Source: Bacteroidales bacterium
Lineage (GTDB): Bacteria; Bacteroidota; Bacteroidia; Bacteroidales; UBA7960
Assembly: GCA_007128045.1 (NCBI GenBank)
Contig: SKYG01000294.1
Span: 1 to 38,489, forward strand
DNA: 38,489 nucleotides
Direction: 5' to 3'
The position numbers and the translations under genes were made by a program. The notes below the pieces were generated by a model. The model was not told the origin of the DNA, ran no database searches, and saw only the letters and a list, made by a program, of their open reading frames with translations. Shown in pieces: positions 4,092-37,652 of this stretch. Each line of letters starts with the position of its first letter. Position 1 is the first letter of the stretch.

Positions 4092-4195
4092 GAGTTGAGG
4101 AGTTGAGGAGTGGAGGAGTGGAGGAGTTGAGGAGTGGAGGAGTTGAGGAGTGGAGGAGTGGAGGAGTTGAGGAGTGGAGGAGTTGAGGAGTTGAA
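4092..4195. repeat. 13 tandem 8-nt units GAGTTGAG (T) / GAGTGGAG (G) in the order TTGGTGTGGTGTT, which contains a 40-nt higher-order repeat (TGGTG x2)
   Basis: Read directly. The array starts 6 nt after the lpdA stop and fills most of the lpdA-rfbC spacer. It is G-rich, with many GG tracts. Confidence 0.95.
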
Positions 4196-4231
4196 GGGTA
4201 TTATTTATTAATTACAACAACTATTTTTCCA

Positions 4232-4774
4232 TTGACAATCATTGAAACACCATTTCGCAAGTTACTGATTATTGAGCCGCGAATTTTTCGCGACAACCGT
4301 GGCTATTTTTACGAATCCTGGAACCAGCAGGTATTTGCACGGGCAGGCATCCCGGATATTTTTATCCAGGATAACCAATCCGGTTCATCAAAGGATGTTA
4401 TCAGAGGTCTTCATTTTCAAATTCCACCGCACGAACAGGGTAAACTGGTGAGGACACTGGCAGGGTCGGTACTCGACGTAGTGGTCGACTTGCGAAGAAG
4501 TGAACCTACCTACGGACAACATTTCAAAATGGTTATTAACGCATCCGGCCACAAAATGCTTTTTATACCACCAGGATTCGCACATGGGTTCCTGACCCTG
4601 GAAGACGACACCGTATTCGCGTATAAATGCACCAAGGCATATCATGCACCGTCAGAAAGGTCGTTGCGATGGGACGACCCCGACCTGGGTATCGACTGGG
4701 GCATTGATAAACCTATACTCTCTGATAAAGACAAACAGGCTGCTCTTTTTAAAGGATTCAGAAGTCCGTTCTGA
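4232..4774 (+). CDS. rfbC: dTDP-4-dehydrorhamnose 3,5-epimerase
   Basis: RGYFYESWN, IRGLHFQ and FIPPGFAHGF cupin motifs; 180 aa. The apparent start is TTG at 4232, with no in-frame upstream ATG. Confidence 0.9.
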   Translation: MTIIETPFRKLLIIEPRIFRDNRGYFYESWNQQVFARAGIPDIFIQDNQSGSSKDVIRGLHFQIPPHEQGKLVRTLAGSVLDVVVDLRRSEPTYGQHFKMVINASGHKMLFIPPGFAHGFLTLEDDTVFAYKCTKAYHAPSERSLRWDDPDLGIDWGIDKPILSDKDKQAALFKGFRSPF

Positions 4775-4783
4775 TTGGCTAAC

Positions 4784-4840
4784 CTGAATTGAATTATTCA
4801 GACTAGCCTGGATTATATATACTAGCCTGGATTATTCAGA
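4784..4840. repeat. degenerate 19-nt tandem repeat, about 3 copies (CTGAATTGAATTATTCAGA / CTAGCCTGGATTATATATA / CTAGCCTGGATTATTCAGA)
   Basis: Read directly. CTAGCCTGGATTAT occurs at 4803-4816 and 4822-4835, and ATTATTCAGA at 4793-4802 and 4831-4840. The last copy covers the stop codon (4836-4838) of the 960-aa gene. CTGAAT/ATTCAG (4784-4789/4796-4801) can form a weak hairpin. Confidence 0.8.
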
Positions 4841-7718
4841 ACGATACAGACCATAAAAACTGAAACTGTATTGATTCCTGGTCGCCGGGAAGATAAGCCC
4901 TGACCCCCATATCCAACGGAAAGAAAAACCTGAACAGATGCAAATGGGCCAAAAGGTCTATACCCATAGAACTGAGTGAGCCTTCGTGCCTGCTTATAAC
5001 CTCATCGGAAGAAGACTTTTGGCTGTATCTGACATTGGCATAATCATAGAAAATATTGCTGCTCACCCTTTTAACAAACACCAGGTGAGGAATCCGCCAG
5101 TCAGGATACACGACTGGAAACGCATAATCAACTGAGAAGATGGCAGCCTGGTCGTCATTCCTTCCTGTGATACCCCGCGGATAGACCACCTGATTGGAGA
5201 ATGTGTAATTGATGGTCTGGTCAACACTTGTACCCTCCCGGCGTTTCTGGTAAGATCCAATCAAACGCAAGCTGTGGTGTGGCAACAATCCAGGAAAAAA
5301 CAACGCCAGGCGGGTGGCAAACACTTCACCCATATCACCCCCTGCGAAAGGCGTATGCCGGTAGCTTACATCCAGCACCTGACCCCACCGTGTCCGGATA
5401 TCTCTTGCAACAGTGCGTTGCTGATTATAGGCAAATAACCGGTATTCCAATGACTGCACATGATTGTGCTTAAAAAAATCCGGCGTCTTGTCAACGGAGG
5501 TGGCCTGTGTAAAAACCATATTTGCCGAAGGCCTTACACCGATATTGAAACTTTCCTTCTGAAAATTCAAGGGTATATTAAATCCCAGCTTCCAGCTGCT
5601 CTCACGCCACAGAAATGGCACCAATTCATTCTGTCTGCTTCGGTAATTAGACCGTCGCAGGCCTGTCTCTGCAACCAGGTCAATGACAGGGTACAAGCCT
5701 TCATAACTATATTTCATATAGTATTTCCCAAGCCCTTCATTAAGATCGTATATGTAGCCTATATTGGCAAAGGATGTGCTGAGCTTGTTCTGTGATAACA
5801 ACGAGAACCCCGGTTTTCCTTCAAGATTGTCTGCATCAAGCACTATTGGCCCCCAACTATGAAATGAAAACAAGTTGGACATTTTGTAATATGGGATGGC
5901 CAAATATTCCTTTCGTGGGATGTTGCCGCGTGTAACAAGACCCTCCTCCTGACCGGCCAGTACTTCATGCATCTGTAGTGAATGATCGGCCACATCATCA
6001 AGCAATGGAGCAGAATCAGTTGTAAAAGTGCCTTTAACCATATCATATCCCATATAAGAATAATCAGACCAAAATAATGAATCACCACCGGGCGACAACA
6101 CGGCATCCAGGGCGCCATACTCTGAGGAGACAAGCATGCGTATTTCTCCTGTTGGCACATCCAATGAATACACGTTGTCGACACCAGAAAACGACCCATT
6201 AAAGAAAATGCCATCAGAAGAGAAAAAGCGCGGTCTCGATATCTCCGTATGTCCTGCATGGAAAATAGTGGCAAACCCTCCCAGCTCCTTGTCAGTGACT
6301 ACCAGTCTTTTACCACTCTCGTCAAGGGCAACAGCTATGATGGTATAGTTATTCTGATGCCATGAAGGGGTCATAAGAAAATCATTTCCCGGCGTGCTAT
6401 AACGTCGGAGAAAGTCACCGGATGTGGCATCAATAACAACAATTGAATATTGATTCTGATCTGTAACCTCTGCAACGGCAATTAGCTTGCCATCGGCAGA
6501 TATGGACGGAGAAAAGTACCTTGTCTGCCGGGTAAGTTGTTGCTTTATACCCGTGCTGACATCGTACCTGTACACCTCCGACCAGCTACGATGTTCCCAG
6601 CGTGGGTCTCTCCTGTACTGACTCCAGACAATGACATCCCCGTTGGCAGATATTGGATGAGACTGAAGCGGGCCAGGTCTGAACAACACCGACTCACTAC
6701 CATCGAGGCCCAGCGAAACAACAGCCGGGATCGCCTCCATACCGGTCTTTAATGCCATCAGGGTGGTGTCATTGATAAATGCAGGATAGCGATAACTGGA
6801 GAAAAGCTTCTTATCTGGGTTCACGGCTTCATATGCACTATAGGCACCCCGCTCCCATTGGTCAGACCATGCCGATTCCAGCATACCCATGGTATTTCTG
6901 TAATGCTGCATTTTTGTTACGCCCGCATATTTTTTCAGTCCAAATGTCATAGGGAAAATGGTGTATGGCCTTCGACCCACATGGGTCAGCACTTTATCCC
7001 AAATATCAACACCATATTGTTTACGGGCAGATGCGACAAGTTGATATCCCAGCTCGTAATAATTTGGAACGTGGTCCTTCATAGATCCCAGTACGGCTTT
7101 ATCAAAAGAGTACACCCCCTTCTCAAGCACCTGCGCACGCAGTCCTTGTTCAAAAGATGGCAGCCTCCCTCGTCCGGCATTTGTCAGTGCAGTCTCTGTT
7201 GCCACCGCATCGCCTTCCATGAACCACATAGGCACGAACAATCCTAAAACGGCACCTGTAGCCTGCTCTCCAAACAGAAATGAAAGCAACCTGGTGACTC
7301 CCTGGTTCAGCTTGTCAATTTGCACAATATGCCTGAACTCGTGCAATGCCAATGACTCCAACCAATCGTGGGCATCGTTATTCTGGGGTGGGTTGGTGAA
7401 CATCTCGATACGGCTTGGCGCCCAGCTTACAAAGCCATTTGAGACGACTGTCTGGTTATGAATAATTACAGATACCTTTTTTGGATTATGGCCAAGGCTC
7501 ACCGACCCATACTGGTAAGCATATTCAAGCACATCAGCGATATAAGCACCTTGCTCCTCATAGTTCTCAGGAAAGATCACCTGAAAATTTACAGACTTGA
7601 TCTGCATCCACCTGATCGATGATGGGTCCTGCCCCATAGAAAAGTACTGCCCCATCAGCGCAATATTTCCGAAGAAGATAAAATAACAACAAAAAATTAT
7701 ATGTGCTAATTTGCTCAA
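4836..7718 (-). CDS. large exported protein: N-terminal HExxH (gluzincin-like) domain, TolB/PD40-like beta-propeller repeats, and a C-terminal beta-barrel-like region ending in Phe
   Basis: 960-aa ORF with the hydrophobic N-terminus MSKLAHIIFCCYFIFFGNIALMG (TTG start). It carries LALHEFRHIV followed by WFMEGDAVATE, and repeated segments such as SPSISADGKLIAVAEV and LSPGGDSLFWSDYS. The last ~330 aa alternate hydrophobic and polar residues and end ...FLWSVSF. Confidence 0.6.
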   Translation of the reverse strand: MSKLAHIIFCCYFIFFGNIALMGQYFSMGQDPSSIRWMQIKSVNFQVIFPENYEEQGAYIADVLEYAYQYGSVSLGHNPKKVSVIIHNQTVVSNGFVSWAPSRIEMFTNPPQNNDAHDWLESLALHEFRHIVQIDKLNQGVTRLLSFLFGEQATGAVLGLFVPMWFMEGDAVATETALTNAGRGRLPSFEQGLRAQVLEKGVYSFDKAVLGSMKDHVPNYYELGYQLVASARKQYGVDIWDKVLTHVGRRPYTIFPMTFGLKKYAGVTKMQHYRNTMGMLESAWSDQWERGAYSAYEAVNPDKKLFSSYRYPAFINDTTLMALKTGMEAIPAVVSLGLDGSESVLFRPGPLQSHPISANGDVIVWSQYRRDPRWEHRSWSEVYRYDVSTGIKQQLTRQTRYFSPSISADGKLIAVAEVTDQNQYSIVVIDATSGDFLRRYSTPGNDFLMTPSWHQNNYTIIAVALDESGKRLVVTDKELGGFATIFHAGHTEISRPRFFSSDGIFFNGSFSGVDNVYSLDVPTGEIRMLVSSEYGALDAVLSPGGDSLFWSDYSYMGYDMVKGTFTTDSAPLLDDVADHSLQMHEVLAGQEEGLVTRGNIPRKEYLAIPYYKMSNLFSFHSWGPIVLDADNLEGKPGFSLLSQNKLSTSFANIGYIYDLNEGLGKYYMKYSYEGLYPVIDLVAETGLRRSNYRSRQNELVPFLWRESSWKLGFNIPLNFQKESFNIGVRPSANMVFTQATSVDKTPDFFKHNHVQSLEYRLFAYNQQRTVARDIRTRWGQVLDVSYRHTPFAGGDMGEVFATRLALFFPGLLPHHSLRLIGSYQKRREGTSVDQTINYTFSNQVVYPRGITGRNDDQAAIFSVDYAFPVVYPDWRIPHLVFVKRVSSNIFYDYANVRYSQKSSSDEVISRHEGSLSSMGIDLLAHLHLFRFFFPLDMGVRAYLPGDQESIQFQFLWSVSF

Positions 7719-7755
7719 CGATGCAACAATTCAACAATTCAACGATGCAACATTT
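7716..7755. repeat. 5 tandem 8-nt units CAACGATG CAACAATT CAACAATT CAACGATG CAACATTT
   Basis: Read directly. The array spans the whole gap between two minus-strand genes. It contains both the TTG start of the 960-aa gene (7716-7718) and the stop plus last ~8 codons of the RluA-family gene. Confidence 0.9.
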
Positions 7756-8477
7756 AACCCCTTCACCAGTTCCTCAAAACATTCCCATAAAGAATCTCCT
7801 GCCGGTGTTGGGGCAACCACCCTGACGCGTTCTTTACTTACAGGGTGAATAAAATCGACCTCTCTGGCGTGCAAATGAATGCCCCCGTTACTGTTAGACC
7901 GGGGATATCCATACTTCAGATCACCCCTGACCGGGCACCCAATGGCGCTAAGCTGTGATCGTATCTGATGGTGTCGTCCGGTTTGAAGTTCAATTTCAAG
8001 CAAATGGTAATGATTGCCTGAGCCAAGCATTTTATAATTCAATATAGCTTTTTTTGCCCCGTCAACATCAGGCCTGACCGGGTAAGACTTGTTTTGTTTT
8101 TCATTCTTTTTGAGATAGTGCTCCAGAGTACCCTCAGCCTCAGGAGGAAGATTTCTGACCACCGCCCAGTAAAGTTTTTTTAGCTCATAGTTTTTCAGCA
8201 TCTCGTTGATACGCGTCAATCCCTTTGAGGTGCGTGCAAAAATAACCGCACCGCTAACCGGTCTGTCGAGACGATGTGCTACACCAAGAAACGCATCTCC
8301 GGGCTTGTTATACTTCGCACGAATATAAGCCTTTACAATATCACTCAAAGGCATATCGCCCGTTTTATCACCTTGAACAATCTCCGACGATTGCTTATTG
8401 ATAACAATCAGGTGGTTGTCTTCGTACAAAACCCTTCTGCTGAAAGAAGTTACAGGATCAATGGTTTCTGTGGTCAT
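7731..8477 (-). CDS. RluA-family pseudouridine synthase
   Basis: HRLDRPVSGAVIFARTSKG catalytic-Asp motif and GRHHQIRSQL. I start at the ATG at 8477 (MTTETIDP...), because the 16 upstream codons of track ORF 7731..8525 lie in an intergenic repeat module. Confidence 0.85.
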   Translation of the reverse strand: MTTETIDPVTSFSRRVLYEDNHLIVINKQSSEIVQGDKTGDMPLSDIVKAYIRAKYNKPGDAFLGVAHRLDRPVSGAVIFARTSKGLTRINEMLKNYELKKLYWAVVRNLPPEAEGTLEHYLKKNEKQNKSYPVRPDVDGAKKAILNYKMLGSGNHYHLLEIELQTGRHHQIRSQLSAIGCPVRGDLKYGYPRSNSNGGIHLHAREVDFIHPVSKERVRVVAPTPAGDSLWECFEELVKGLNVASLNC

Positions 8478-8562
8478 AGTTGTTGCGGATTGTGGGCCTG
8501 TCTCGAACGAAGTGAGAGATCCCATGATGGTCGTGTATGTTACGGGTTGTGAGTCGCGGGTT
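8478..8562. repeat. composite REP-like module: GTTGTTGCGGATTGTGGG, then TCTCGAACGAAGTGAGAGATCCC, then GTTACGGGTTGTGAGTCGCGGGTT
   Basis: Read directly. The 23-mer at 8501-8523 is the exact reverse complement of 11778-11800. The GTTRCGG-type words recur at 11814-11840, 24037-24062 and 28278-28298. Confidence 0.85.
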
Positions 8563-9070
8563 AAAACGGCCAGAAGTTGTTATCATACCAAACCTGTTCG
8601 GTAAGTTGCTTATTCAAATCAAGCAACATTTTATGGTGGCCTTTCTCCCAATTGGCAAGCCACTCGTAGAGTTCCTTCTCATTGGGATCAGAAGCTTCCC
8701 TGGCCCTGGAGGCATATACCTCAATAGATTTCGACTCCATGTCGATGGCTGCAGAAATGGCAGCTGCCTCAAATCCGGCCCCAGAAATATCCTTTTTAAT
8801 AGAATCGGTAAGAATTAAACCGGCAATATGTTCATTGGAAGCATCCTCTTCAAATGAAAGCACATCGAAAGAACCTGTCTTCTTGTAGTTCTTAAATTGC
8901 TTAAGCAGAAAATCTATGTGCAACTGTTCTTCATCGGCCATGATGCTGAAAATTTTTCTCACATCAGCACTCTCTGTTTGTTCAGCTACCTTGGTGTAAA
9001 GTGCTTTTCCGCGATGCTCCATGATCACTGCCTGCTTTAAAACATCTATAACTTGTTCTGATTTAGTCAT
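8561..9070 (-). CDS. ferritin-like / rubrerythrin-family di-iron protein
   Basis: The 169-aa product has two helical halves, each with an E...ExxH pattern (ADEEQLHIDF and ANWEKGHHKM). Confidence 0.65.
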   Translation of the reverse strand: MTKSEQVIDVLKQAVIMEHRGKALYTKVAEQTESADVRKIFSIMADEEQLHIDFLLKQFKNYKKTGSFDVLSFEEDASNEHIAGLILTDSIKKDISGAGFEAAAISAAIDMESKSIEVYASRAREASDPNEKELYEWLANWEKGHHKMLLDLNKQLTEQVWYDNNFWPF

Positions 9071-9109
9071 TTAAACAGTTTTTTATATATAAGGGTAAAC
9101 TAACACAAA

Positions 9110-9117
9110 CAAAAATA
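9110..9117 (-). promoter_or_regulatory. candidate Bacteroidota -7 box (TATTTTTG on the minus strand) for the ferritin-like gene
   Basis: Matches TAnnTTTG about 40 nt upstream of the ATG at 9070. Confidence 0.35.
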
Positions 9118-9168
9118 GACATTTTCAGAACAAAAAACCGAAGAAAGTGCTGTTTCAGGGAAAACAAG

Positions 9169-9176
9169 TAACTTTG
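9169..9176 (+). promoter_or_regulatory. candidate -7 box TAACTTTG for the AmgK-like gene
   Basis: Matches TAnnTTTG about 30 nt upstream of the ATG at 9207. Confidence 0.35.
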
Positions 9177-9206
9177 TCTTATAAAAATTGGTCGTAAAAG
9201 AAACAT

Positions 9207-10640: not shown

Positions 10641-10646
10641 CAAGTG

Positions 10647-10694
10647 TTGAATTGTTGAACTGTTGAATTGTTGAATTGTTGAATTGTTGAATTG
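10647..10694. repeat. 6 tandem 8-nt units TTGAATTG (one is TTGAACTG)
   Basis: Read directly. The array starts 6 nt after the stop of the AmgK-like gene. Confidence 0.95.
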
Positions 10695-10700
10695 TTTGCC

Positions 10701-10826
10701 ATGGGAGATAACAAACGGTGTAAGTCATCTAACAAAGAAGATTCCCAAAAGGGGAAATATGCATGCAAAAAATGCGGTCTTAAAGCCAGCAAGGAAAAGC
10801 ATTTGTGCAAACCCAAAAAAGGATGA
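10701..10826 (+). CDS. possible small Lys/Cys-rich protein (41 aa), zinc-knuckle-like
   Basis: Below the ORF-track size cutoff. My translation is MGDNKRCKSSNKEDSQKGKYACKKCGLKASKEKHLCKPKKG, with CxxC (C22, C25) followed by HxC (H34, C36). It has ATG and TGA and sits exactly between two repeat arrays. The region is A-rich, so chance is not excluded. Confidence 0.35.
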   Translation: MGDNKRCKSSNKEDSQKGKYACKKCGLKASKEKHLCKPKKG

Positions 10827-10828
10827 CA

Positions 10829-10860
10829 GACTTTTGACCTTCGACTTTGGACTTTCGACT
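10829..10860. repeat. 4.5 tandem 7-nt units GACTTTT GACCTTC GACTTTG GACTTTC GACT (complement of the GTCGAAGG family)
   Basis: Read directly. The array ends 13 nt before the murU-like ATG, followed by AAATTTTAAACAC. Confidence 0.9.
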
Positions 10861-10873
10861 AAATTTTAAACAC

Positions 10874-11731: not shown

Positions 11732-11770
11732 ACCCGTTAAACTGGAATACCGTTAATCAGGGAACCTCGA

Positions 11771-11840
11771 TCTGTAGGGGATCTCTCACTTCGTTCGAGA
11801 TGACGGGTGCTATGAACCCGCAACTCATAACTCACAACCC
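11771..11840. repeat. composite REP-like module: TCTGTAGG, then GGGATCTCTCACTTCGTTCGAGA, then GAACCCGCAACTCATAACTCACAACCC, abutting the next ATG
   Basis: Read directly. Positions 11778-11800 are the exact reverse complement of 8501-8523. The AACCCGCAACTC-type words are complements of the GTTGCGG words at 24040-24060. TCTGTAGGGG also occurs at 27954-27963. Confidence 0.85.
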
Positions 11841-17332: not shown

Positions 17333-17388
17333 AAAAGAGGTCTCCTAATGGAATAACAAATTATTAATATTTTTTTCAGATTGACATG

Positions 17389-17396
17389 CAAAATTA
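17389..17396 (-). promoter_or_regulatory. candidate -7 box (TAATTTTG on the minus strand) for alaS
   Basis: Matches TAnnTTTG about 57 nt upstream of the alaS ATG at 17332. Confidence 0.3.
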
Positions 17397-17409
17397 CAGG
17401 TTTTTTCTT

Positions 17410-17417
17410 TAGTTTTG
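17410..17417 (+). promoter_or_regulatory. candidate -7 box TAGTTTTG for the M23 peptidase/merR pair
   Basis: Matches TAnnTTTG but implies a ~190-nt leader, so confidence is low. Confidence 0.25.
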
Positions 17418-17610
17418 CACTGAAGGAAAAGGAGAATCCCTTCCCATCTGCTAAGATGACCAATATGTGTATGTTTTATCTGTCGGCAATATAATACATT
17501 CTGACAGACTCAGTGCCTTTTTGCAGGCATGTTTTGTTTGCAACAGGCCGCTTTATAAAGTACATACACTGCTTGGTTTTGAGTAACAAAGAAGATCACT
17601 GCCAGACATT

Positions 17611-18914: not shown

Positions 18915-18970
18915 CAACTTATCATTTCAACAACTCAACAACTCAACATTTCAACAATTTTCCAAACTTA
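18915..18970. repeat. 8-nt phased units CAACTTAT CATTTCAA CAACTCAA CAACTCAA CATTTCAA CAATTTTC CAAACTTA filling the merR-MFS spacer
   Basis: Read directly. The array starts at the first base after the merR stop and ends 5 nt before the MFS ATG at 18976. Confidence 0.85.
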
Positions 18971-18975
18971 TCCTT

Positions 18976-20382: not shown

Positions 20383-20437
20383 CAAACAGACAGATACAAG
20401 GTATAGATACCGGCTTATCGAAAAAACTCTTAATGAT

Positions 20438-21403: not shown

Positions 21404-21518
21404 GACAGCATCCTACAGCTTTAATACTGTGATTATTTCCAACGCAGCACAAGGCCACTTACAAATTAGAAAAACAAAGTTTTAAAGGGTAATAGCATAA
21501 AATGTAGTTGCCCTCCTG

Positions 21519-22151
21519 CTAATAGAATTGCCTGGCAATGGTCGGTTCTTCTTTGCCAAAATGGTGGTGATGGGTAATGCCAAGCCGCTCTACATAGGCT
21601 ATCAGGTCAGGAAAAAATGTGGCAAACTCCGCCCCAAACTCATCATAATATTGCTCAAGGTCTTCAACCGCTGTTTCCATGCCTGACTTGAATGGAGTTC
21701 GCTTTGCAAGGCCCTGGAAATGCTGCTTTAGCTTGTCAAGGTTGGATTAGTTGACCAGCCAGTTCGAAGCAATCATAAATGGCAACAGGTTCTTGGCACG
21801 TACCGGAAGCATAAAATAGTTCCTCAGCAACAACCCATAGGCATGACTTACAAACCTGGGAAGAGGCTGTATAGAATATTCACTCCAGTTTCTGGCCAGA
21901 TAATGATCGTAAAACATGTCGACAATCACCCCGGAATATAATCGATACCTGTTTCGCAAACGCCGCTTGCTCTGGTCTACAATGGGATGGTTGTCGGTGA
22001 AACTATCTATTTTGCGATGTAACTCTATACCCCTGACTACCCCATCCTGATAACTTTCAATCTGACGACCCTTGACCATATCGGCAATAAAGTTGCCAAT
22101 AATCAACTCCTGATCATCGCCTGCAAGGTATAAATGTGCCAGAAAATTCAT
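21519..22151 (-). pseudogene. acpH: acyl carrier protein phosphodiesterase (AcpH) interrupted by an in-frame TAA at 21749-21747
   Basis: The track ORF (134 aa) reads MNFLAHLYLAGDD...GNFIADMVKG...HRKIDSFTDNHP...NWLVN*. My translation of the same frame past the stop gives SNLDKLKQHFQGLAKRTPFKSGMETAVEDLEQYYDEFGAEFATFFPDLIAYVERL... for 75 aa to the TAG at 21521-21519. Together the halves match the full-length ~190-210-aa AcpH layout, with E. coli ...WLVRYRDMD... placing Tyr at the stop position. Confidence 0.75.
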
Positions 22152-22307
22152 TGATAGTGGTGTTATAACTTATTCACGTTTACACTAAAAAAACCATAAC
22201 TATTCTGTCTTCATTTTGTTAGATTAAAGATACATCAAATAATTTCAAAAATAATGCCAGAATAAAATAATTATTGATCAGATTCAGTCTGATCGGCAAG
22301 AATTATA

Positions 22308-22315
22308 TAGTTTTG
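22308..22315 (+). promoter_or_regulatory. candidate -7 box TAGTTTTG for iorA
   Basis: Matches TAnnTTTG about 54 nt upstream of the ATG at 22369. A 7-bp hairpin GATCAGA/TCTGATC lies at ~22275-22293. Confidence 0.35.
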
Positions 22316-22368
22316 TATACGACACAACAACGTTCTTTTGTCTTTATCTTCTTAAAGCGTACTTTTCT

Positions 22369-23982: not shown

Positions 23983-23998
23983 ACACATAAATGCCCAT

Positions 23999-24128
23999 GT
24001 CGAAGATCCCGATTGTTCAGAACTTCGCTTCGCTACGAGTTGCGGGTTGTGGGTTGCGGGTTAAACTTTAAACCTTAAACTTTAAACTGACTTTTCGACA
24101 TTCAGACATTCAGACATTTAGACAATTT
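23999..24128. repeat. composite spacer: GTCGAAGATCCCGATTGTTCAGAACTTCGCTTCGC module, then GTTGCGG GTTGTGG GTTGCGG, then AAACTTT AAACCTT AAACTTT AAACTGA, then CTTTTC, then GACATTCA x2, GACATTTA, GACAATTT
   Basis: Read directly. It occupies most of the 152-nt iorA-iorB gap. The last ~50 nt are nearly identical to 35701-35748. Confidence 0.9.
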
Positions 24129-24134
24129 TAACAT

Positions 24135-24725: not shown

Positions 24726-24918
24726 AATGTCTGCAAAATATATGTTGTGGGTAATTCACCACTCCGGATGCATGAACATCGCCAATGATACAAATAATAA
24801 TCCTGAACCAAACATCCCTTTACTTGTTTTACTACATATACCTAAAAGAAGGAATATAAACTATTACATTGATTTTACATTCTGCGAATAACAAACCACC
24901 AACTGTAATAAAATAACT

Positions 24919-27807: not shown

Positions 27808-27814
27808 TTCACAA

Positions 27815-27948
27815 GTCAAAAGGTCGGAAGGTCGAAGGTCGAAGGTCTGAAGGTCTGAAGGTCTGAAGGTCTGAAGGTCTGAAAGTCTGAAGGTCGAAGG
27901 TCGAAAGGTCGAAGGTCGAAAGGTCGAAGGTCGAAGGTCGGAAGGTCT
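27815..27948. repeat. 17 tandem 7-8-nt units of form GTC(N)GAAG (GTCGAAG, GTCTGAAG, GTCGAAAG, GTCGGAAG)
   Basis: Read directly. The array starts 7 nt after the gcvP stop. GTCTGAAG x4, GTCTGAAA and GTCTGAAG form the centre, and GTCGAAG-type units flank it on both sides. Confidence 0.95.
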
Positions 27949-27960
27949 ATGCATCTGTAG

Positions 27961-27980
27961 GGGCGAAAAACCTTTCGCCC
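27961..27980 (+). other. perfect 8-bp hairpin GGGCGAAA-AACC-TTTCGCCC, preceded by TCTGTAG
   Basis: Read directly. No U-tract follows on either strand, so it is not a canonical intrinsic terminator. The TCTGTAGGGG prefix is shared with 11771-11780. Confidence 0.6.
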
Positions 27981-28057
27981 ACGATTCAAAGTCATCGACA
28001 GTCTATAGAAATACCCATGACCAATGTCAACAAACAAATCTTTACGTGGTAAATTGT

Positions 28058-28212
28058 CTCGGCGTGACTTTACGCATCACTCGGCGTGACTCTGCGGTTA
28101 AAAAACCATGAGCCAGCGCCCTCTGCGAATAACTCGGCGTGACTCTGCGGTTAAAAAACCATGAGCCAGCGCCCTCTGCGAATAACTCCGCGGCACTCTG
28201 CGGTTAAAGTAA
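28058..28212. repeat. 53-nt tandem repeat: two identical full copies (28080-28132, 28133-28185), a 22-nt partial copy before and a diverged partial copy after
   Basis: Read directly. The unit is CTCGGCGTGACTCTGCGGTTAAAAAACCATGAGCCAGCGCCCTCTGCGAATAA. Confidence 0.9.
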
Positions 28213-28218
28213 CCTGGT

Positions 28219-28298
28219 AACCCGAAGCGAAGCGAAGATCCCGATTTATCAGGACGGCAACTTCGTAACTTTGTAAACTCACAACCCGTAACTCGCGT
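28219..28298. repeat. REP-like module: CCCGAAGCGAAGCGAAGATCCCGATTTATCAGGA...CTTCG, then ACTCACAACCCGTAACTCGCG
   Basis: Read directly. It shares CGAAGATCCCGATT..T.CAG.A...CTTCG with 24001-24028, and the AACCCGTAACTC word family with 8539-8562, 11814-11840 and 24037-24062. Confidence 0.8.
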
Positions 28299-28312
28299 TC
28301 AGCAGACCGAAA

Positions 28313-30112
28313 CTAGCTATCCTTCTGTTGCTGATACAGAAACCGTTTGATTTTTTTCGTGGGGGTCTTTTCGAAGGGTTCATCCTGTTCTTCAACAATG
28401 GCAACCTTTGAGAACCTATTCAGCCGTTCATTTACCCTCTGTTTGATTTCATTAAGACGATCAAACACCTTTTGCCGCGACTCTTCATACATTTGTTCTG
28501 CCGAGTCCTTCATGTCTTGATAGCTTTGGCCGGCTGATTCCCTGATCTCCTGATAGCTCTGGCCAGCCGACTCCTTAAATTCCTGATAACTTTTCTCTGC
28601 CTTGGTTTTCAGTTCATGGTAGCGCTGGTCTATATCTTCGTAATTCAGGTGTATTCTGGCCACCAGCTTGCCCTTAATTTCATATACCAATGATTCAAGA
28701 ACCTGATGTTCACTATTGATAACAGCCTCAATATCTTCGGGATAAATATTCTCCCCGGAGGCACTGATGATAATATTTTTCAGGCGGCCTTTGATAAACA
28801 GATAGCCGTCCTCATCAAAATTTCCGAGATCACCTGTTTTAAACCACCCATCATCAGTAAACACTTCTTGTGTAAGTTCAGGCTCTTTGTAATAACCAAT
28901 CATCACGTTGGGGCCTCTGGCAATGATCTCCCCTTCACCTGTTTGCGGGTCAGGGTTCAGGATTTTTATCTCCTGGTTGGGGAGGTTAAAACCGGTAGAA
29001 CGATATTTAGTAATTTTAGGACCGCATCCGGCAAGAAGCGGTGAGGTTTCTGTCAATCCATAACCTATGGCATAAGGAAACCCTGCGTCCCTTAAAAACA
29101 ATTCAGTGGCAGCGTCAAGCTTGGCACCACCAATGCCAAAGAAATGCAACTTGCCTCCAAAAGCTTTGTAAATCTTTTTACCAGCCATCTTATGAAAGAA
29201 CTTACGGGCTGGCTTGAATTTGCCCAGTGTTCTCATTACAGGACTTCCTGTGAGCTTGGGTAATACCCTGTTCTGATATACCTTTTCGATGATTAACGGA
29301 ACCGTAAGCATCATGGTGGGCTTTACCTTCTCCATGGCGGGGAGCAGAACAGCAGGTGTAGGCAGCTTGTCCAGGTAATATACCGAAGCTCCTGTCATAA
29401 AAGGGATCAGAAAGCCAATGGTGCACTCATAGGTGTGAGGCAAAGGCAGCACGGACAACAGCCTGTCTTCTACAGAAACAATTTGAATGCCGAGGGTGTT
29501 AACTGCATTGGAGAGTAGATTCCGGTGACTAAGCATCACCCCTTTGGGCGTGCCGGTAGTGCCTGAAGTATACAGAATTGCCGCGAGGTCTTCTTCCTGG
29601 GGATATGTAGCAGCATCTCTAACAGCAGCTTTGGCAGTTGGTTTTTGTCTGCTGGCAGGTGAAATGGTGCCACTAAGTTCCAAACTGCCCAGGCTGATTT
29701 CGCTCAGATCATCAAGCAGGATGGCTGCCTGAAGGGTTTCGGGCAGTTCCTGACGGATCTTATCTGCCTGTTTTTCACTTATGATGATGGTTTTTGCTTC
29801 GCTATGTGCAAGAATCTTAACAACCTCTGGAGTACTGAAATCAGTCAGTATAGGAACTATAACGGCTCCCATAGCAGTTACTGCAAGATAGGCAACCCCC
29901 CAGTTGGGCATATTCTGACTGAGCAGGGCAACACGATCTCCGTGTTGAACTCCTTGAGCCACTAAGAGTGACTGTAAGCTCTCTATCAACAATTTAACAT
30001 CGCCATATGTCAGGGGTTCTTTACCGACAAACGACAAGGCAGGTCTGTCAGCATACAACTCCACGCTGTTTTCAAGCAGGGCGTGAAATGTGAGATGTTT
30101 AGGGATGTTCAT
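28313..30112 (-). CDS. long-chain acyl-CoA ligase (AMP-forming, ANL superfamily)
   Basis: ILYTSGTTGTPKGVMLSHRNL AMP-binding motif, YGLTETSP and GWFKTGDLG. I start at the ATG at 30112 (MNIPKHLTF...) rather than the TTG at 30133. The C-terminal domain carries an 11-aa tandem repeat insertion. Confidence 0.85.
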   Translation of the reverse strand: MNIPKHLTFHALLENSVELYADRPALSFVGKEPLTYGDVKLLIESLQSLLVAQGVQHGDRVALLSQNMPNWGVAYLAVTAMGAVIVPILTDFSTPEVVKILAHSEAKTIIISEKQADKIRQELPETLQAAILLDDLSEISLGSLELSGTISPASRQKPTAKAAVRDAATYPQEEDLAAILYTSGTTGTPKGVMLSHRNLLSNAVNTLGIQIVSVEDRLLSVLPLPHTYECTIGFLIPFMTGASVYYLDKLPTPAVLLPAMEKVKPTMMLTVPLIIEKVYQNRVLPKLTGSPVMRTLGKFKPARKFFHKMAGKKIYKAFGGKLHFFGIGGAKLDAATELFLRDAGFPYAIGYGLTETSPLLAGCGPKITKYRSTGFNLPNQEIKILNPDPQTGEGEIIARGPNVMIGYYKEPELTQEVFTDDGWFKTGDLGNFDEDGYLFIKGRLKNIIISASGENIYPEDIEAVINSEHQVLESLVYEIKGKLVARIHLNYEDIDQRYHELKTKAEKSYQEFKESAGQSYQEIRESAGQSYQDMKDSAEQMYEESRQKVFDRLNEIKQRVNERLNRFSKVAIVEEQDEPFEKTPTKKIKRFLYQQQKDS

Positions 30113-30220
30113 GCTATACCTATTTGGGTACAAAGGTACGCTTTTTTAAGGGCTTTGCACTCACAAATAAATATAAACGAGCGTATAAGATTGTCTTACT
30201 GTGTTTCCCTGGATACTCCC

Positions 30221-32422: not shown

Positions 32423-32426
32423 AATG

Positions 32427-32434
32427 ACCTCCTT
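32427..32434 (-). promoter_or_regulatory. strong Shine-Dalgarno-like AAGGAGGT 4 nt upstream of the hppA ATG
   Basis: The minus strand reads TTAAAATAAGGAGGTCATTATG. No other gene start in the window shows a comparable SD. Confidence 0.5.
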
Positions 32435-32457
32435 ATTTTAATAGATTAATGAATGAT

Positions 32458-32499
32458 GACCTTCGACCTTCGACCTTTGACATTCGGCTTTCGACATCT
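32458..32499. repeat. 6 tandem 7-nt units GACCTTC GACCTTC GACCTTT GACATTC GGCTTTC GACATCT
   Basis: Read directly. The array lies between the hppA start and its candidate promoter, so it would be in the 5' UTR, read as GTCGAAGGTC... on the mRNA. Confidence 0.9.
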
Positions 32500-32512
32500 C
32501 AACATATGGAAA

Positions 32513-32520
32513 CAAATTTA
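32513..32520 (-). promoter_or_regulatory. candidate -7 box (TAAATTTG on the minus strand) for hppA
   Basis: Matches TAnnTTTG about 90 nt upstream of the hppA ATG. Confidence 0.3.
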
Positions 32521-32610
32521 TTAATTTATTTGGATTGACCACATACATAAAACTTAAAAATCAGTCGCTTTAAAACAGAGACCAGGCATGCTGTTGTAAA
32601 AAATTTATGT

Positions 32611-32618
32611 TATTTTTG
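32611..32618 (+). promoter_or_regulatory. candidate -7 box TATTTTTG for the BFN nuclease / CNT transporter genes
   Basis: Matches TAnnTTTG about 57 nt upstream of the ATG at 32676. Confidence 0.35.
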
Positions 32619-32675
32619 TGACTGCTTCATAAAGCCAGGTGTTGAAAGATAGAAACTATCGAAACGATTGTCAAG

Positions 32676-33266
32676 ATGAAGAAAATCAAACTGGAGATAT
32701 TGGGAATTTCTTACAGTCAGTCGCAATCCGGCGCATATGCCCTGATACTGGGAGAGGCAGGAAAAAAACGCAGACTTCCGATCATTATCGGAAGCTTCGA
32801 GGCACAGGCTATAGCCATCGAACTGGAGAAGATGAAGCCCAGCAGACCTTTAACCCATGATCTGTTTAAAAATTTCGCCACCACGTTTAATATCGGCATC
32901 AAGGAAGTCATCATCTATAAATTCAGTGAGGGCATCTTTTTTGCCAAGCTGATTTGTTTCGATGGTGTCAAAGAAATGGAGATAGATTCAAGAACATCTG
33001 ATGCGGTAGCCATCGCAGTGCGTTTTAAGTGCCCCATTTATACTTATGAGTCCATACTTAAAGCGGCAGGTATAGTTTTGCAGGATGAGAACGAGCCGCT
33101 CGACCCGGAAACCATATCGGAGGAGCCTGAAGAAAAAGAAGGAGCCTATGCATCATTTACCCTTGGTGAGCTGGAGGCCATGCTACTTGCTGCCATAGAC
33201 GAAGAAGCATATGAAAAAGCATCCCGGATCCGGGATGAAATCAATATCCGGAAAAAAAAGAAATAA
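32676..33266 (+). CDS. bifunctional nuclease family protein (BFN/DUF151 domain) with C-terminal UVR motif
   Basis: GISYSQSQSGAYALILGE...RLPIIIGSFEAQAIAIELE...RPLTHDL is the BFN-domain pattern. The C-terminus EEAYEKASRIRDEI resembles a UvrB/UvrC motif. Confidence 0.75.
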   Translation: MKKIKLEILGISYSQSQSGAYALILGEAGKKRRLPIIIGSFEAQAIAIELEKMKPSRPLTHDLFKNFATTFNIGIKEVIIYKFSEGIFFAKLICFDGVKEMEIDSRTSDAVAIAVRFKCPIYTYESILKAAGIVLQDENEPLDPETISEEPEEKEGAYASFTLGELEAMLLAAIDEEAYEKASRIRDEINIRKKKK

Positions 33267-33277
33267 TCCCCAACAAC

Positions 33278-34774
33278 ATGGTGCTACTTAATCGATTGTT
33301 ATGGGTTGTGTGTCTTTTGGTCATACCCATTATGTTGCACGCAACCCAGGCTGACAGCCTGCAGGATCCTGCCATATTTAACAACATAGCAGAACCAGAG
33401 TTAAGCCAGGATGTTGGGTTGCAAGCTGAACCGGTTAACGTGGTTGACCATGAGGCAATTGAAGTACCTATTAAACCCGGACTTTCTGCAAGAAATCTTT
33501 TCAGAGGCTTGCTGGGTATGATCTCATTGATTGTTATTGCCTGGTTGTTCAGCACCAACCGCAGGGCTATCTCCTGGAAGGTGGTGGGTATTGGGCTTGG
33601 ACTACAACTATTGCTGGCATTCAGCATATTGCAGGTTCCTCCGGTACAATACTTTTTCGAAATGATTGGAAAGATCTTTGTGGTGATCCTGGACTTCACA
33701 AAGGCCGGTTCAGAATTTCTCTTTGCCGGCTTTTTAGATATCGAAACGTATGGTTTTATTTTTGCTTTTCAGGTTTTGCCTACGATCATCTTTTTTTCAG
33801 CGCTCACAAGCTTATTGTTTTACCTGGGTATCATACAAAAAATCGTTTATGCACTGGCCTGGGCCATGACCAAAGCCATGCGGCTGTCGGGTGCAGAGAG
33901 TTTATCTGTAGCAGGAAATATCTTCCTCGGCCAAACAGAATCACCCCTGATGATCAAGGCATACCTGGCCAATATGAACAGGTCGGAGATCTTGCTGGTC
34001 ATGACCGGAGGTATGGCCACCATGGCGGGAGGTGTGTTGGCAGCCTATATCAGTTTTCTGGGCGGCGACGATCCTGTTCAGCGACTGATCTTTGCCAAAC
34101 ACCTGTTGGCGGCATCCATCATGGCAGCGCCAGGCGCTGTGGTCATAGCCAAAATTCTTGTACCGCAGACCGAGTCTGTAGATAAAACCATGGAAATAAG
34201 CAAAGATCGTATCGGCAATAACATTCTGGATGCCATCTCCAATGGGACAACCGAAGGCCTTAAGCTGGCCGCCAATGTGGCCGCCATGCTTTTAGTTTTT
34301 ATTGCTTTCATTGCCATGTTCAATTTTATCGTGGGAAAGATCGGATTGTATACCAACCTGAATGCCACCATAGCAGAAATGACCAATGGTCAGTATTCGC
34401 AGCTGTCGCTACAATTTATTCTCGGATACACATTTGCCCCTCTGATGTGGCTGATAGGCATCAGCCTGCCTGACATCACCCTCGCGGGGCGTCTGTTGGG
34501 TGAAAAGGTGATCATGACAGAGTTTATCGCCTATGTAAGCCTTGCAGAGCTCAAAGAAGCAGGCGCCTTTTCCGACCCAAAATCTATTATCATGGCTACC
34601 TACATGCTATGCGGGTTTGCCAATTTTGCCAGTATAGGTATTCAAATTGGAGGGATCGGCTCCCTGGCACCTAACAAGCGTGTGCTTCTCTCGCAATATG
34701 GCATGCGTGCCCTGCTGGGAGGCACCCTGGCCGCCCTCATGAGTGCTACCATTGTCGGGATCATCCTGGGATAA
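33278..34774 (+). CDS. concentrative nucleoside transporter (NupC/CNT family) with an N-terminal extension
   Basis: GNIFLGQTESPLMIKAYL, MTGGMATMAGGVLAAYI and LCGFANFASIGIQIGGIG match CNT signature regions. About 80 extra N-terminal residues include a signal-like segment. Confidence 0.85.
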   Translation: MVLLNRLLWVVCLLVIPIMLHATQADSLQDPAIFNNIAEPELSQDVGLQAEPVNVVDHEAIEVPIKPGLSARNLFRGLLGMISLIVIAWLFSTNRRAISWKVVGIGLGLQLLLAFSILQVPPVQYFFEMIGKIFVVILDFTKAGSEFLFAGFLDIETYGFIFAFQVLPTIIFFSALTSLLFYLGIIQKIVYALAWAMTKAMRLSGAESLSVAGNIFLGQTESPLMIKAYLANMNRSEILLVMTGGMATMAGGVLAAYISFLGGDDPVQRLIFAKHLLAASIMAAPGAVVIAKILVPQTESVDKTMEISKDRIGNNILDAISNGTTEGLKLAANVAAMLLVFIAFIAMFNFIVGKIGLYTNLNATIAEMTNGQYSQLSLQFILGYTFAPLMWLIGISLPDITLAGRLLGEKVIMTEFIAYVSLAELKEAGAFSDPKSIIMATYMLCGFANFASIGIQIGGIGSLAPNKRVLLSQYGMRALLGGTLAALMSATIVGIILG

Positions 34775-34808
34775 AGCCATAAACTTTGGTTTTCTTTCAT
34801 GTTTCGAT

Positions 34809-34816
34809 TACTTTTG
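34809..34816 (+). promoter_or_regulatory. candidate -7 box TACTTTTG for thyA
   Basis: Matches TAnnTTTG about 40 nt upstream of the ATG at 34856. Confidence 0.4.
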
Positions 34817-34855
34817 AATTAAGTAAGTGCATCAACAATACCTCATTATAATTCC

Positions 34856-35647
34856 ATGCAGCAATACCATCAGTTAATGGCTCATGTGCTTGAGCACGGC
34901 ACCCGGAAAGATGATCGCACCGGCACAGGTACCATCAGCGTTTTTGGCTATCAGATGCGATTCGCCCTCGACAAAGGCTTTCCGCTCGTAACCACCAAAA
35001 AGCTTCATCTCAGATCCATCATACATGAACTCCTGTGGTTTCTCATAGGGAATACCAACATTGCGTATCTGAAAGAAAACGGGGTAAGCATCTGGGACGA
35101 ATGGGCCGATGAACATGGTGATCTTGGCCCGGTGTACGGTGCACAGTGGCGTAGCTGGCAAAGTGCTGCCGGCCCCATCGATCAAATAAGTCAATTGATA
35201 AAACAGATAAAAACCAACCCTGACTCGCGGCGACATATGGTGAGTGCCTGGAATGTCGGCGAGATTGAGAAGATGGCATTACCACCATGCCACATCCTGT
35301 TTCAGTTCTATGTAGCAAACGGAAAGCTCTCTTGCCAGCTATACCAGCGCAGTGCAGATATATTCCTTGGCGTACCCTTTAATATAGCTTCTTACGCATT
35401 GTTTACCATGATGATAGCACAGGTCTGCGACCTTCAACCCGGCGATTTTGTCCATACCTTTGGTGATGCCCACCTGTATTTGAATCATCTGGATCAGGCC
35501 CGCTTACAATTAAGCCGCGAGCCAAAACAGCTTCCAGTCATGCATCTTAATCCCACAATAAAAAACATATTTGATTTCCGGTATGAAGATTTTACACTTG
35601 AGGGTTACGAGCCACACCCCCATATAAAAGCGCCTGTGGCGGTGTAG
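34856..35647 (+). CDS. thyA: thymidylate synthase (ThyA type)
   Basis: [17 protein letters not shown] and [13 protein letters not shown] (catalytic Cys), with C-terminus ...APVAV; 263 aa. Confidence 0.97.
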
Positions 35648-35654
35648 AAATAAG

Positions 35655-35741
35655 GTCGAAAAGTCAAAAGATCGAAAGGTCGGAAGGTCGGAACCCTTTT
35701 TGACTTTTCGACATTCAGACATTCAGACATTCAGACAATTT
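35655..35741. repeat. composite spacer: GTCGAAAA GTCAAAAG ATCGAAAG GTCGGAAG GTCGGAAC, then CCTTTTTGACTTTTC (inverted arm), then GACATTCA x3, GACAATTT
   Basis: Read directly. It fills the 101-nt thyA-folA gap. Positions 35655-35670 and 35696-35712 form a ~16-bp inverted repeat with one bulge. Confidence 0.92.
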
Positions 35742-35748
35742 TAAACAT

Positions 35749-37519: not shown

Positions 37520-37652
37520 ATTTGGTTATCCTATTATAAAGATAACGATTATTTACACAAAATGTTTTAGGAATAACGCCGCACCAGGCTGCAGACAAAT
37601 CCGAAGTTTTACAAAAAAAACAAAGTTTTATAGGGCAATGGCATCATGCAGG

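Follow-up and report, generated by a model that had tools for sequence, protein, structure and literature searches.

The intergenic DNA of contig SKYG01000294.1 (assembly GCA_007128045.1), from an uncultured Bacteroidales of the lineage UBA7960, carries an unusually dense set of tandem arrays of 7-8-nt units. We analysed the contig as one stretch of 38,489 nt, hereafter the window. Its arrays lie almost wholly between genes, draw on a shared vocabulary, differ in copy number among conspecific assemblies, are gained and lost at orthologous junctions and have a strand composition that follows the flanking genes. We consider it probable that they are lineage-specific 7-8-nt long simple-sequence repeats (LSSRs): spacers inflated by slippage, with arrays copied from spacer to spacer and filtered by their effect on expression.

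Same-genome sampling amounted to ~52 kb, namely the window, contig L081 (4.5 kb upstream) and contig L216 (~8 kb downstream). The window was compared with conspecific contigs (including L081, L082, L210, L211 and L212), with contigs of sister species (L203, L204 and L205, the last two from the same species) and with a further relative, L206; ThyA identity to the window is 93% in L204/L205, 90% in L203 and 87% in L206. A broader sample covered 1.5 Mb in total, taken from the gcvP surroundings of 80 mostly Bacteroidota genomes, in which genes were called with a crude longest-open-reading-frame (longest-ORF) caller. The nearest GcvP matches belong to uncultured Bacteroidales metagenome-assembled genomes (MAGs), at 78-79% identity, and the GC content of the window is ~45%.

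Tandem Repeats Finder (TRF) detected 12 arrays of period 7 or 8 in the window, compared with 0.11 per shuffle in 100 dinucleotide-preserving shuffles, and the top array score was 167, compared with 40 for the best among these shuffles. The units match at 77-100% and are present in 3.4-16.9 copies. All arrays that an initial annotation had read directly from the letters were recovered at practically the same coordinates. That annotation had also regarded the arrays as neither CRISPR nor genes, and both judgements hold: they are contiguous 7-8-mers with no spacers between units, and they are non-coding. An assembly artefact, or low complexity arising by chance, might be suspected because arrays are frequent break points of short-read contigs (L001 and L214, as well as L082 within the lpdA array and L212 within the gcvP array). 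However, separate assemblies produced by three pipelines (ENA, Logan and JGI) and covering at least seven samples contain the same arrays and flanks, which, together with the shuffles, effectively refutes this explanation. The arrays are real.

The 567 array bases are far from equally common in the two compartments: the 3,260 intergenic nt hold 542 of them and the ~35,200 coding nt hold 25, so that arrays make up 17% of the intergenic DNA. The proposed restriction to spacers therefore stands except at 7716-7755, where a rluA-like ORF takes its final ~7 codons and its TGA stop from the array. Density reaches ~0.3 arrays per kb, ~9-fold that of the 80-genome sample. There, no tandem-repeat period is more frequent than 7 (41 arrays, of which 33, or 80%, are intergenic), and period 8 ranks second among the non-coding classes (9 of 11 arrays intergenic); heptamers are thus favoured in the sample, whereas the window favours 8-mers. 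An array was detected in 9 of the 23 spacers of at least 10 nt. Degenerate GTTRYGR remnants mark three more sites, one in the gcvP-acs spacer and the others in two additional spacers. Arrays begin 0-12 nt past the stops of lpdA, the amgK-like gene, merR, gcvP and thyA, and end 10-18 nt ahead of the starts of the murU-like, MFS, iorB and folA genes, in line with the gene-hugging placement described earlier. By contrast, the statement that array-free junctions all overlap or measure under 10 nt was incorrect, as 13 array-free spacers are 35-343 nt long, mostly divergent promoter regions. Several arrays sit inside gene pairs of a normally co-transcribed type (iorA-iorB, thyA-folA, amgK-murU and merR-MFS).

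Among conspecific contigs, copy number varies while the surroundings stay the same. The lpdA array has 13 units in the window and 6 in L081, with identical flanks, and the iorB array has 3.5, 3 or 2 GACATTCA units on contigs with identical flanking proteins. In L210, the gcvP array lacks the whole homogeneous (GGTCTGAA)6 block. Since this block differs from the adjacent GGTCGAA units by one inserted T, it illustrates how a unit can mutate and then be amplified, and how 7-nt units can become 8-nt ones. A 53-nt tandem repeat in the gcvP-acs spacer is present in 2.5 copies in the window and 1.5 in L210, and the spacer measures 505 and 404 nt, respectively, compared with only 82 nt in L203.

Differences between species are larger. 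The thyA-folA spacer measures 101 nt in the window and 205-222 nt in L204/L205, where the start-proximal units are GACTGTTY, repeated four times in one sample and seven times in the other; in L203 it is 64 nt long, with a stop-proximal GGTCGAAAAGTC array only, and in L206 it is 10 nt long, with no array. Whether the same junctions carry arrays in relatives, a question raised at the outset, therefore has a mixed answer: the stop-proximal thyA array has an ortholog in L203, L204 and L205 but none in L206, and the array upstream of the H+-pyrophosphatase (PPase) gene has an ortholog with other units in L204 but none in L203 or L206. In the spacer between a radical-SAM gene and an OmpA gene, a TGTTGATN array following the radical-SAM gene is orthologous across species, with a changed copy number. 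Window and L204 are ~88% identical in coding DNA and 88-89% identical in array-free spacers, whereas the array-bearing thyA-folA spacer is 39% identical between the window and L205, making the arrays the fastest-evolving DNA of the region. The anticipated copy-number polymorphism is thus present (13 versus 6 units; 3.5, 3 or 2; four versus seven), as seen in short-read metagenome assemblies. Slippage-driven spacer building, originally one candidate among several, is favoured by these conspecific differences, by the ancestral-type 10-nt spacer of L206 and by array divergence beyond that of the flanks.

After rotation and reverse-complementing, the units group into two main families. One has a GTTG core (GTTGAGGA, GTTGAATT, GTTGAACT, GTTGATNT and GTTGYGG, with the reverse-complement forms CAACAAT/CAACAAC), and the other has a GAC-n-TT core (GACATTCA, GACTTTCA and GACCTTC, with the reverse-complement forms AAGGTCG/AAGGTCTG). 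The PPase array matches part of the gcvP array exactly when reverse-complemented. At least 12 6-mers are shared by 18 of 105 array pairs within the genome (17%), but by only 11 of 1,285 pairs between genomes (0.9%); this stringent threshold alone separates the two sets, the sharing of at least one 6-mer being uninformative (30% versus 18%). The near-identical pairs bear out the shared word set, and the suspicion that it reaches past the window was well founded: the upstream contig L081 contains GACTTTCA x4.4, GTTGAATT x3.5 and TCAACAAC x3.8, the downstream contig L216 contains TGTTGATN and GACNTTCA, and window words are also present in the sister species, including a GTTGYGG-family array of five units after gcvP in L203. 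In other genomes, 5 of 41 within-locus pairs share words, indicating that a genome-specific vocabulary is a general trait of this repeat class.

A metagenome scan for three tandem GTCTGAAK units retrieved 120 loci (L083-L202) with GC contents of 28%-71%. Such arrays are widespread, often in mosaics with other 7-9-mers. The GACATTCA/GTCTGAAG arrays at these loci (e.g. L091, L105, L119, L154 and L188) are usually mosaics of differing 7-9-nt arrays, whose units grade into one another, as in gactttca to gacattca.

Beyond single words, a composite module recurs in front of starts. It consists of TTTTTGAC, followed by GACNTTYN units and by the tail GAC(T)AAATTTTAAAnAy (AATTTTAAACAY), and adjoins the ATG of four unrelated genes: the murU-like gene (10874), iorB (24135), folA (35749) and an HMA-domain gene (L081 447). 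Its orientation is the same in all four cases, with the units ending 10-13 nt from the ATG and the tail touching it, and a 44-nt stretch of the iorB copy (in the module at 24086-24134) and of the folA copy (35701-35744) is 98% identical. At folA, the start codon and the N-terminal sequence are the gene's own (MKLF/MQVS start), while the leaders in L203 and L206 are unrelated; the leader is thus foreign, and the module appears to have been copied in as a unit. This clade-specific module was found in none of the 120 GTCTGAAK loci, although L140 shares a REP-like element. No Bacteroidetes-type TTTG...TAnnTTTG promoter pair was seen by eye in the modules. All four module genes start with ATGAAA, a start shared by only two among 22 other genes (Fisher p = 0.001), which suggests either microhomology-anchored copying or a target preference. 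In three spacers, a pseudo-start AACACATGAAAT(G/A)CCCATG at the left end produces 11-nt direct repeats AACACATGAAA around a segment of 100-145 nt. The module may have originated by ectopic conversion anchored on ATGAAA, by junction duplication or as a small mobile element.

The near-identical 44-52-nt modules at four loci, the 11-nt direct repeats bounding a segment in three spacers and the association with ATGAAA starts would suit very small non-autonomous mobile elements at gene boundaries, comparable to the repeats of Elhai et al. 2008 or to REP/REPIN sequences moved by RAYT, as would the presence in the same spacers of other dispersed elements (GAAGATCCCGATT, AAATRCCCATG and GTAG-plus-hairpin REP-like units). 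The arrays would then have a vocabulary in common because the elements do. Nevertheless, we regard this origin as quite unlikely for the arrays at large. No terminal inverted repeats flank them, as had been noted initially, and the putative duplicated target has one and the same sequence at all three sites and may instead belong to the element or stem from duplication of a junction. Most arrays (lpdA, amgK, gcvP and merR) lack module-like unique flanks, no transposase or RAYT gene is present in the 38-kb window, and copy change within arrays would require slippage in any case.

The arrays are also polar. All eight stop-proximal arrays (within 21 nt of a stop) have more G than C on the mRNA strand (GC skew +0.43 to +1.0), and all six start-proximal arrays (within 18 nt of a start) have more C than G (skew -0.14 to -1.0), the sole exception being the PPase array, 35 nt from its start (sign test, 1.2e-4, with module copies not fully independent). 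The claim that arrays occur in either orientation relative to genes is thereby overturned. The same tendency appears in 40 intergenic arrays of the 80 other genomes, with a mean skew of -0.45 near starts and +0.18 near stops (Mann-Whitney U test, p = 0.002, with genes from the crude ORF caller), and in the metagenome loci (p = 0.02-0.07); for comparison, the background skew amounts to only -0.13 ahead of starts and -0.04 past stops. Replication-strand effects cannot explain this pattern, because opposite skews occur within one co-directional spacer. The polarity is a constraint tied to the gene. TGA is contained in the stop-proximal units of six of the eight arrays, which is not convincingly above compositional expectation, and the provision of stop codons in three frames is therefore not a convincing purpose for them.

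Polarity bears on the proposal that the arrays are double-stranded binding sites for a nucleoid or global regulator, as suggested for IHF/HU in Geobacter metallireducens, or that they act as terminators or insulators. Their architecture resembles the Geobacter class 1-3 sites (PMC2700814), and the Geobacter unit TWGTTGAY resembles the TGTTGAAT/TGTTGATN units. Yet a spacing of 7-8 bp places successive sites on different helix faces, the gene-relative strand polarity argues for a constraint on single strands or RNA, and turnover is high. Termination fares no better, as it would be harmful within the likely operons that hold arrays. An intrinsic-terminator scan of the window gave counts near those of shuffles, with no site at any array, and single arrays are predicted not to fold; the arrays thus do not qualify as intrinsic terminators, and the terminator or insulator role entertained in the initial annotation finds no support for single arrays. 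We therefore consider this group of explanations very improbable. A sigma-70 promoter scan likewise gave counts equal to shuffles and no array site, using a model unsuited to Bacteroidota.

In each array, one of the two bases needed for G-C pairing is missing, and single arrays are predicted to be unstructured (z of -1.8 to +1.1), the merR-MFS spacer having a minimum free energy of 0. Where a stop-proximal and a start-proximal array face each other, as between thyA and folA, they are predicted to pair into a hairpin of -26.9 kcal/mol (z = -4.2; none of 200 shuffles gave as stable a fold), which has no U-tail. The L205 spacer shows the same architecture with other units (z = -5.0). Arrays followed by an inverted copy of themselves were also seen in other genera. 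In Flavobacterium (L072 12916-12979 and L068 12925-12992), heptamer arrays form 24-27-bp hairpins with z of about -10, and these pairs lie directly after a canonical gcvP terminator; in Gracilimonas (L039 14185-14272), a similar pair gives a shorter hairpin (z = -4.8).

These features could alternatively reflect cis-acting RNA elements of a post-transcriptional system, transcribed within operons, the G-poor start arrays offering the ribosome an unstructured place to land or presenting phased binding sites to a single-strand RNA-binding protein (S1, Csp-like or RRM), and the G-rich stop arrays and hairpins tuning mRNA stability or cistron coupling. We hold this possible but doubtful, for both parts jointly. 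The strict polarity relative to the flanking gene rather than the chromosome, the location between co-transcribed-type pairs, the module ending exactly at the ATG of four genes and the lack of structure in single arrays all agree with it. So do the short cores shared by otherwise variable units (GACnTT and GTTG), the persistence of the predicted thyA-folA hairpin with other units in a sister species and the invariance of that spacer in four assemblies; moreover, such a role has been proposed for TAACTGA repeats (MacGregor 2015, PMC4679880). On the other hand, arrays are missing at orthologous junctions of close relatives with the same genes in the same order, copy numbers differ two-fold between conspecific populations and units turn over much faster than the neighbouring non-repeat intergenic DNA. 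The flanking genes are unrelated housekeeping genes without a common theme, and polarity is equally explicable by a filter on neutral insertions. An essential role is made unlikely by rapid turnover and by absence in close relatives with the same operons, whereas a modulatory one would be compatible with both. A full polar, RNA-level spacer code in Shine-Dalgarno-independent bacteria, in which C-poor arrays would follow stops, G-poor arrays would precede starts, phased GUUG/GACnUU sites would be read by a factor binding single-stranded RNA or by the ribosome and register-slipping hairpins would set cistron translation or stability, seems unlikely to us. If it were true, copy-number slippage would be a population-level tuning knob for housekeeping operons.

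The explanation that we favour, slippage with copying between spacers and a filter by expression, would account for these observations as follows. Replication slippage would make and remodel the arrays: units would be gained and lost, a mutated unit would be amplified, and insertion of a single nucleotide would turn 7-nt units into 8-nt ones. It would inflate originally very short spacers (~10-20 nt), many of them in operon-like pairs; arrays would then seem to hug stop and start codons because each fills a tiny inflated spacer. The shared vocabulary would be due to common descent, arrays and their immediate flanks having been copied between spacers, sometimes inverted, with ectopic recombination or conversion between arrays as the likely route. 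An array and an inverted copy in one spacer would give rise to a long hairpin. Finally, expression would act as a filter: G-poor unstructured units would persist at starts, as expected for Shine-Dalgarno-independent initiation in Bacteroidota, and G-rich/C-poor units at stops.

Several points weigh against this explanation. The thyA-folA spacer is unchanged in four conspecific assemblies, and copy numbers come from short reads, with arrays shorter than the k=141 used; collapse during assembly is unlikely, given that array length and the fact that one variant lacks a whole unit type. We infer the slippage itself, the transfer of arrays from spacer to spacer and the kind of filter at work. Neutral slippage alone fails to explain why words recur and why a module with a non-repeat tail sits exactly at four ATGs. 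The G-rich bias near stops exceeds background composition, and the predicted array-to-array complementarity retained in the sister species L205, despite its other units, hints at constraint.

The initial annotation placed the arrays in no described family. They do fit one: they are a dense new member of a described, functionally unexplained class of bacterial LSSRs, with several relatives among named heptamer repeats. Among these are the cyanobacterial STRR heptamers, which Mazel and colleagues are said to have reported in 1990 as genome-specific words in intergenic tandem arrays of both orientations; small dispersed repeats (SDRs) inside such arrays were reportedly described by Elhai and colleagues in 2008. 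In heterocystous cyanobacteria, the STRR words are CCCCAGT / TTGGTCA / CAACAGT. As in that system, a few genome-specific words occupy many loci here, and other tiny dispersed elements share the spacers, but the phylum and the words differ, STRR units are 7-mers and we saw no sign of hairpin-type SDR insertions. Identity with STRR was rejected, since the host is a Bacteroidales and the units are mostly 8-mers with other sequences, only the CAACAAT type resembling STRR3. The heptamer style and the ~45% GC would also suit a cyanobacterial source of the window, which the similarity of its proteins to those of Bacteroidales MAGs ruled out.

The class itself was delineated as LSSR5-11 by Mrázek, Guo & Shah 2007, whose survey is summarised in PMC4679880 and PMC4692102. 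According to these summaries, heptamers are in excess, non-triplet units are confined to non-coding DNA, the hosts are free-living bacteria, the repeats lie near metabolic genes and are not contingency loci, and slippage was hypothesised as their origin. The properties described there, namely head-to-tail units of 5-11 nt beyond chance expectation, intergenic location and length polymorphism, are all found in the arrays of the window. Differences are that heptamers dominate in the summarised survey, whereas 8-nt units outnumber 7-nt units here at ~9-fold the density of our Bacteroidota sample, and that the present host, an uncultured Bacteroidales lineage, was not found named in the summaries.

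TAACTGA and other heptamer direct repeats were described in Beggiatoaceae, Cyanobacteria and five Bacteroidetes (MacGregor 2015, PMC4679880). TAACTGA repeats lie mostly in forward orientation just upstream of the starts of unrelated, often essential genes in a Shine-Dalgarno-poor context, and Gramella and Aequorivita have long mixed heptamer arrays where close relatives have shorter repeat-free spacers (PMC4679880). Fixed orientation near starts is shared by the GACNTTYN module only, and the stop-proximal class is additional here. No two tandem TAACTGA units occur in the window at up to two mismatches. One mismatch from TAACTGA, we observed ACTGATC x19 in a Bacteroidales MAG (L005 7520-7654) and ACTGATT x13 in Flagellimonas (L029 14216-14306). 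The GGGAATC repeats of Xanthomonas and GGGGAYT repeats of Nostoc/Anabaena (Rehm et al. 2015, PMC4692102) are ~90% intergenic and nearer to the upstream ORF. Their G-rich strand is the coding strand 0-50 bp past stops and the non-coding strand 0-50 bp before starts, some overlap stop codons, and sister species carry them at matching junctions, with extensive variation in length and sequence (PMC4692102). Their polarity is identical to that of our arrays, but they form G-quadruplexes, while units here have no G-runs of three or more except GTTGCGGG, and they belong to one word family, whereas several occur here. In Geobacter metallireducens, species-specific paired tandem 7-9-mers (GTTGCTYN, TWGTTGAY and MTYCTGA) have 3-5 units, often as inverted pairs, e.g. 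in proB-proA, and were guessed to be sites for the global regulators IHF/HU (Aklujkar et al. 2009, PMC2700814). Of these words, GTTGCTYN and TWGTTGAY come close to our GTTG family, and both systems use intergenic and operon-internal spacers; however, the Geobacter copy numbers are small and fixed and the sites paired, in contrast to up to 17 copies, mostly unpaired, here. High short-tandem-repeat density in Bacteroidota was also reported in a 2025 survey. Two further identities were rejected: phase-variation simple-sequence repeats, because the arrays lie between the stop and start of housekeeping genes and disrupt no reading frame, and REP/BIME elements, because the arrays are direct repeats that do not fold.

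Individual arrays and related features are listed in Table 1. Within the merR-MFS array, TRF delimits a core at 18927-18957 (TCAACAAC x3.9). The heptamer remnant at 28283 is orthologous to a CCCGCAA x5 array of L203, of which the window keeps two units.

Table 1. Arrays, modules and associated features of the window
Feature	Position	Strand	Remarks
lpdA array (GAGTTGAG/GAGTGGAG), 8 nt, x12.9	4092..4194	+	6 nt past lpdA stop; mRNA strand G57 C0
rluA-like array (AATTGTTG/CATCGTTG on gene strand), x~5	7716..7755	-	TRF 7716-7752, x4.6; reaches next gene
Degenerate GTTRYGR heptamer remnant (gttacgggttgtgagtcgcggg)	8538..8560	+	Read directly
amgK array (TGTTGAAT), x6.5	10645..10696	+	4 nt past amgK-like stop; G13 C1
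murU module: GACYTTN x4.6 + tail GACTAAATTTTAAACAC	10826..10873	+	TRF 10829-10860, 7 nt; abuts likely true ATG 10874
merR-MFS array, degenerate 8-nt phased CAAC/CATT	18915..18975	+	Fills 61-nt spacer; G0 C10
iorA-iorB array (GTTGYGG), x3.4	24039..24062	+	One unit differs in L210/L211
iorA-iorB array (TTAAACT/TTAAACC), x4	24061..24088	+	TRF
iorB module: TGACTTTTC + GACATTCA x3.5 + tail GACAATTTTAACAT	24086..24134	+	TRF 24097-24124; abuts iorB ATG
gcvP array, mixed 7/8 nt (AAGGTCG, AAGGTCGA, AAGGTCTG), x16.9	27815..27948	+	7-12 nt past gcvP stop; TRF 27820-27948
53-nt tandem repeat, x2.5, gcvP-acs spacer	28079..28208	+	Separate repeat class; equally variable
PPase array (GACCTTC), x5.4	32458..32495	+	Divergent H+-PPase/BFN spacer, 35 nt upstream of PPase start
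thyA array (AAGGTCGA/AAAGTCAA), x4.9	35652..35690	+	4 nt past thyA stop
thyA-folA hairpin, stop-proximal array paired with start-proximal array	35655..35737	+	Predicted by RNA folding
folA module: TTTTTGACTTTTC + GACATTCA x3.5 + tail GACAATTTTAAACAT	35697..35748	+	TRF 35710-35737; abuts folA ATG
Further GTTRYGR remnants	11815-11840, 28283-28300		Read directly; latter in gcvP-acs spacer
Array-free spacers, examples	9071-9206, 17333-17610, 21404-21746, 22152-22368, 24726-24918, 34775-34855		

The gene content of the window consists of ordinary housekeeping functions: AdoHcy hydrolase, ACPS, PcrB, lpdA, rmlC, rluA-like, rubrerythrin, amgK-like, murU-like, AddB-like nuclease, AlaRS, M23 peptidase, merR, MFS, epimerase, ACP phosphodiesterase, iorA, iorB, gcvP, acyl-CoA synthetase, H+-PPase, bifunctional nuclease (BFN), nupC, thyA, folA and dnaB. 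Rfam searches at gathering thresholds gave no match, and a tRNA/tmRNA scan no gene, anywhere in the window. Arrays affect gene calls. The rluA-like ORF (7731-8525, minus strand) is lengthened by array codons, and the TTG starts inside arrays at 7718 (ORF 4836-7718, minus strand) and 10847 (plus strand) are probably false; in the latter, murU-like ORF, the Pfam match begins at residue 11. Elsewhere, the ORF at 539-1033 (plus strand) is spurious, because the minus strand of 1-1183 encodes AdoHcy hydrolase.

Other repeats share these spacers. Tandem units of 27-53 nt built on CTCTGCG...CTGCGGTTA occur in the window (28079-28208) and in L081 (211-264 and 1708-1829, as related 27/49-nt units). REP-like units with a GTAG(G) head and a short hairpin were seen at 27957-27982, 11773-11805 and 8501-8523, as well as in L140, L203 (17622-17799 and 19337-19460) and L216 (3203-3346); one 23-nt stretch recurs as an exact inverted repeat 3.2 kb away and in the metagenome contig L140. 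These units might be a sign that the genome encodes a RAYT-type system in some other region. Dispersed elements GAAGATCCCGATTGTTC and AAAT(G/A)CCCATG, the latter preceded by the pseudo-start AACACATGAAA, are present in the window (23983-24020, 28219-28250 and 28009-28019), L204 (4615-4665) and L081 (328-350). The iorA-iorB copy of AAAT(G/A)CCCATG opens a 29-codon ORF in L210/L215, and a 1-nt deletion removes its ATG in the window. A 29-nt dispersed repeat, AAAAACAAAGTTTTAWAGGGYAATRGCAT, occurs with 90% identity in two otherwise unrelated spacers (21470-21498 and 37616-37644), and an in-frame tandem repeat of 33 nt (11 codons, x2.3) at 28518-28593 lies in the C-terminal region of the acyl-CoA synthetase, with a weak Apolipoprotein-like Pfam match.

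In practical terms, arrays of this kind break short-read contigs and distort ORF calls through false TTG starts and C-terminal extensions, and they would make good variable-number tandem-repeat markers for strain tracking. Why free-living bacteria fill scarce intergenic DNA with 7-8-nt arrays has been a question since the STRR reports of 1990 and the LSSR survey of 2007. The present lineage is an unusually dense case, for which public metagenomes hold copy-number variants as well as filled and empty junctions in sister species. Its polarity rule is common to other Bacteroidota, Xanthomonas and Nostoc, and the choice between neutral and functional explanations is thus open to comparative and reporter work.

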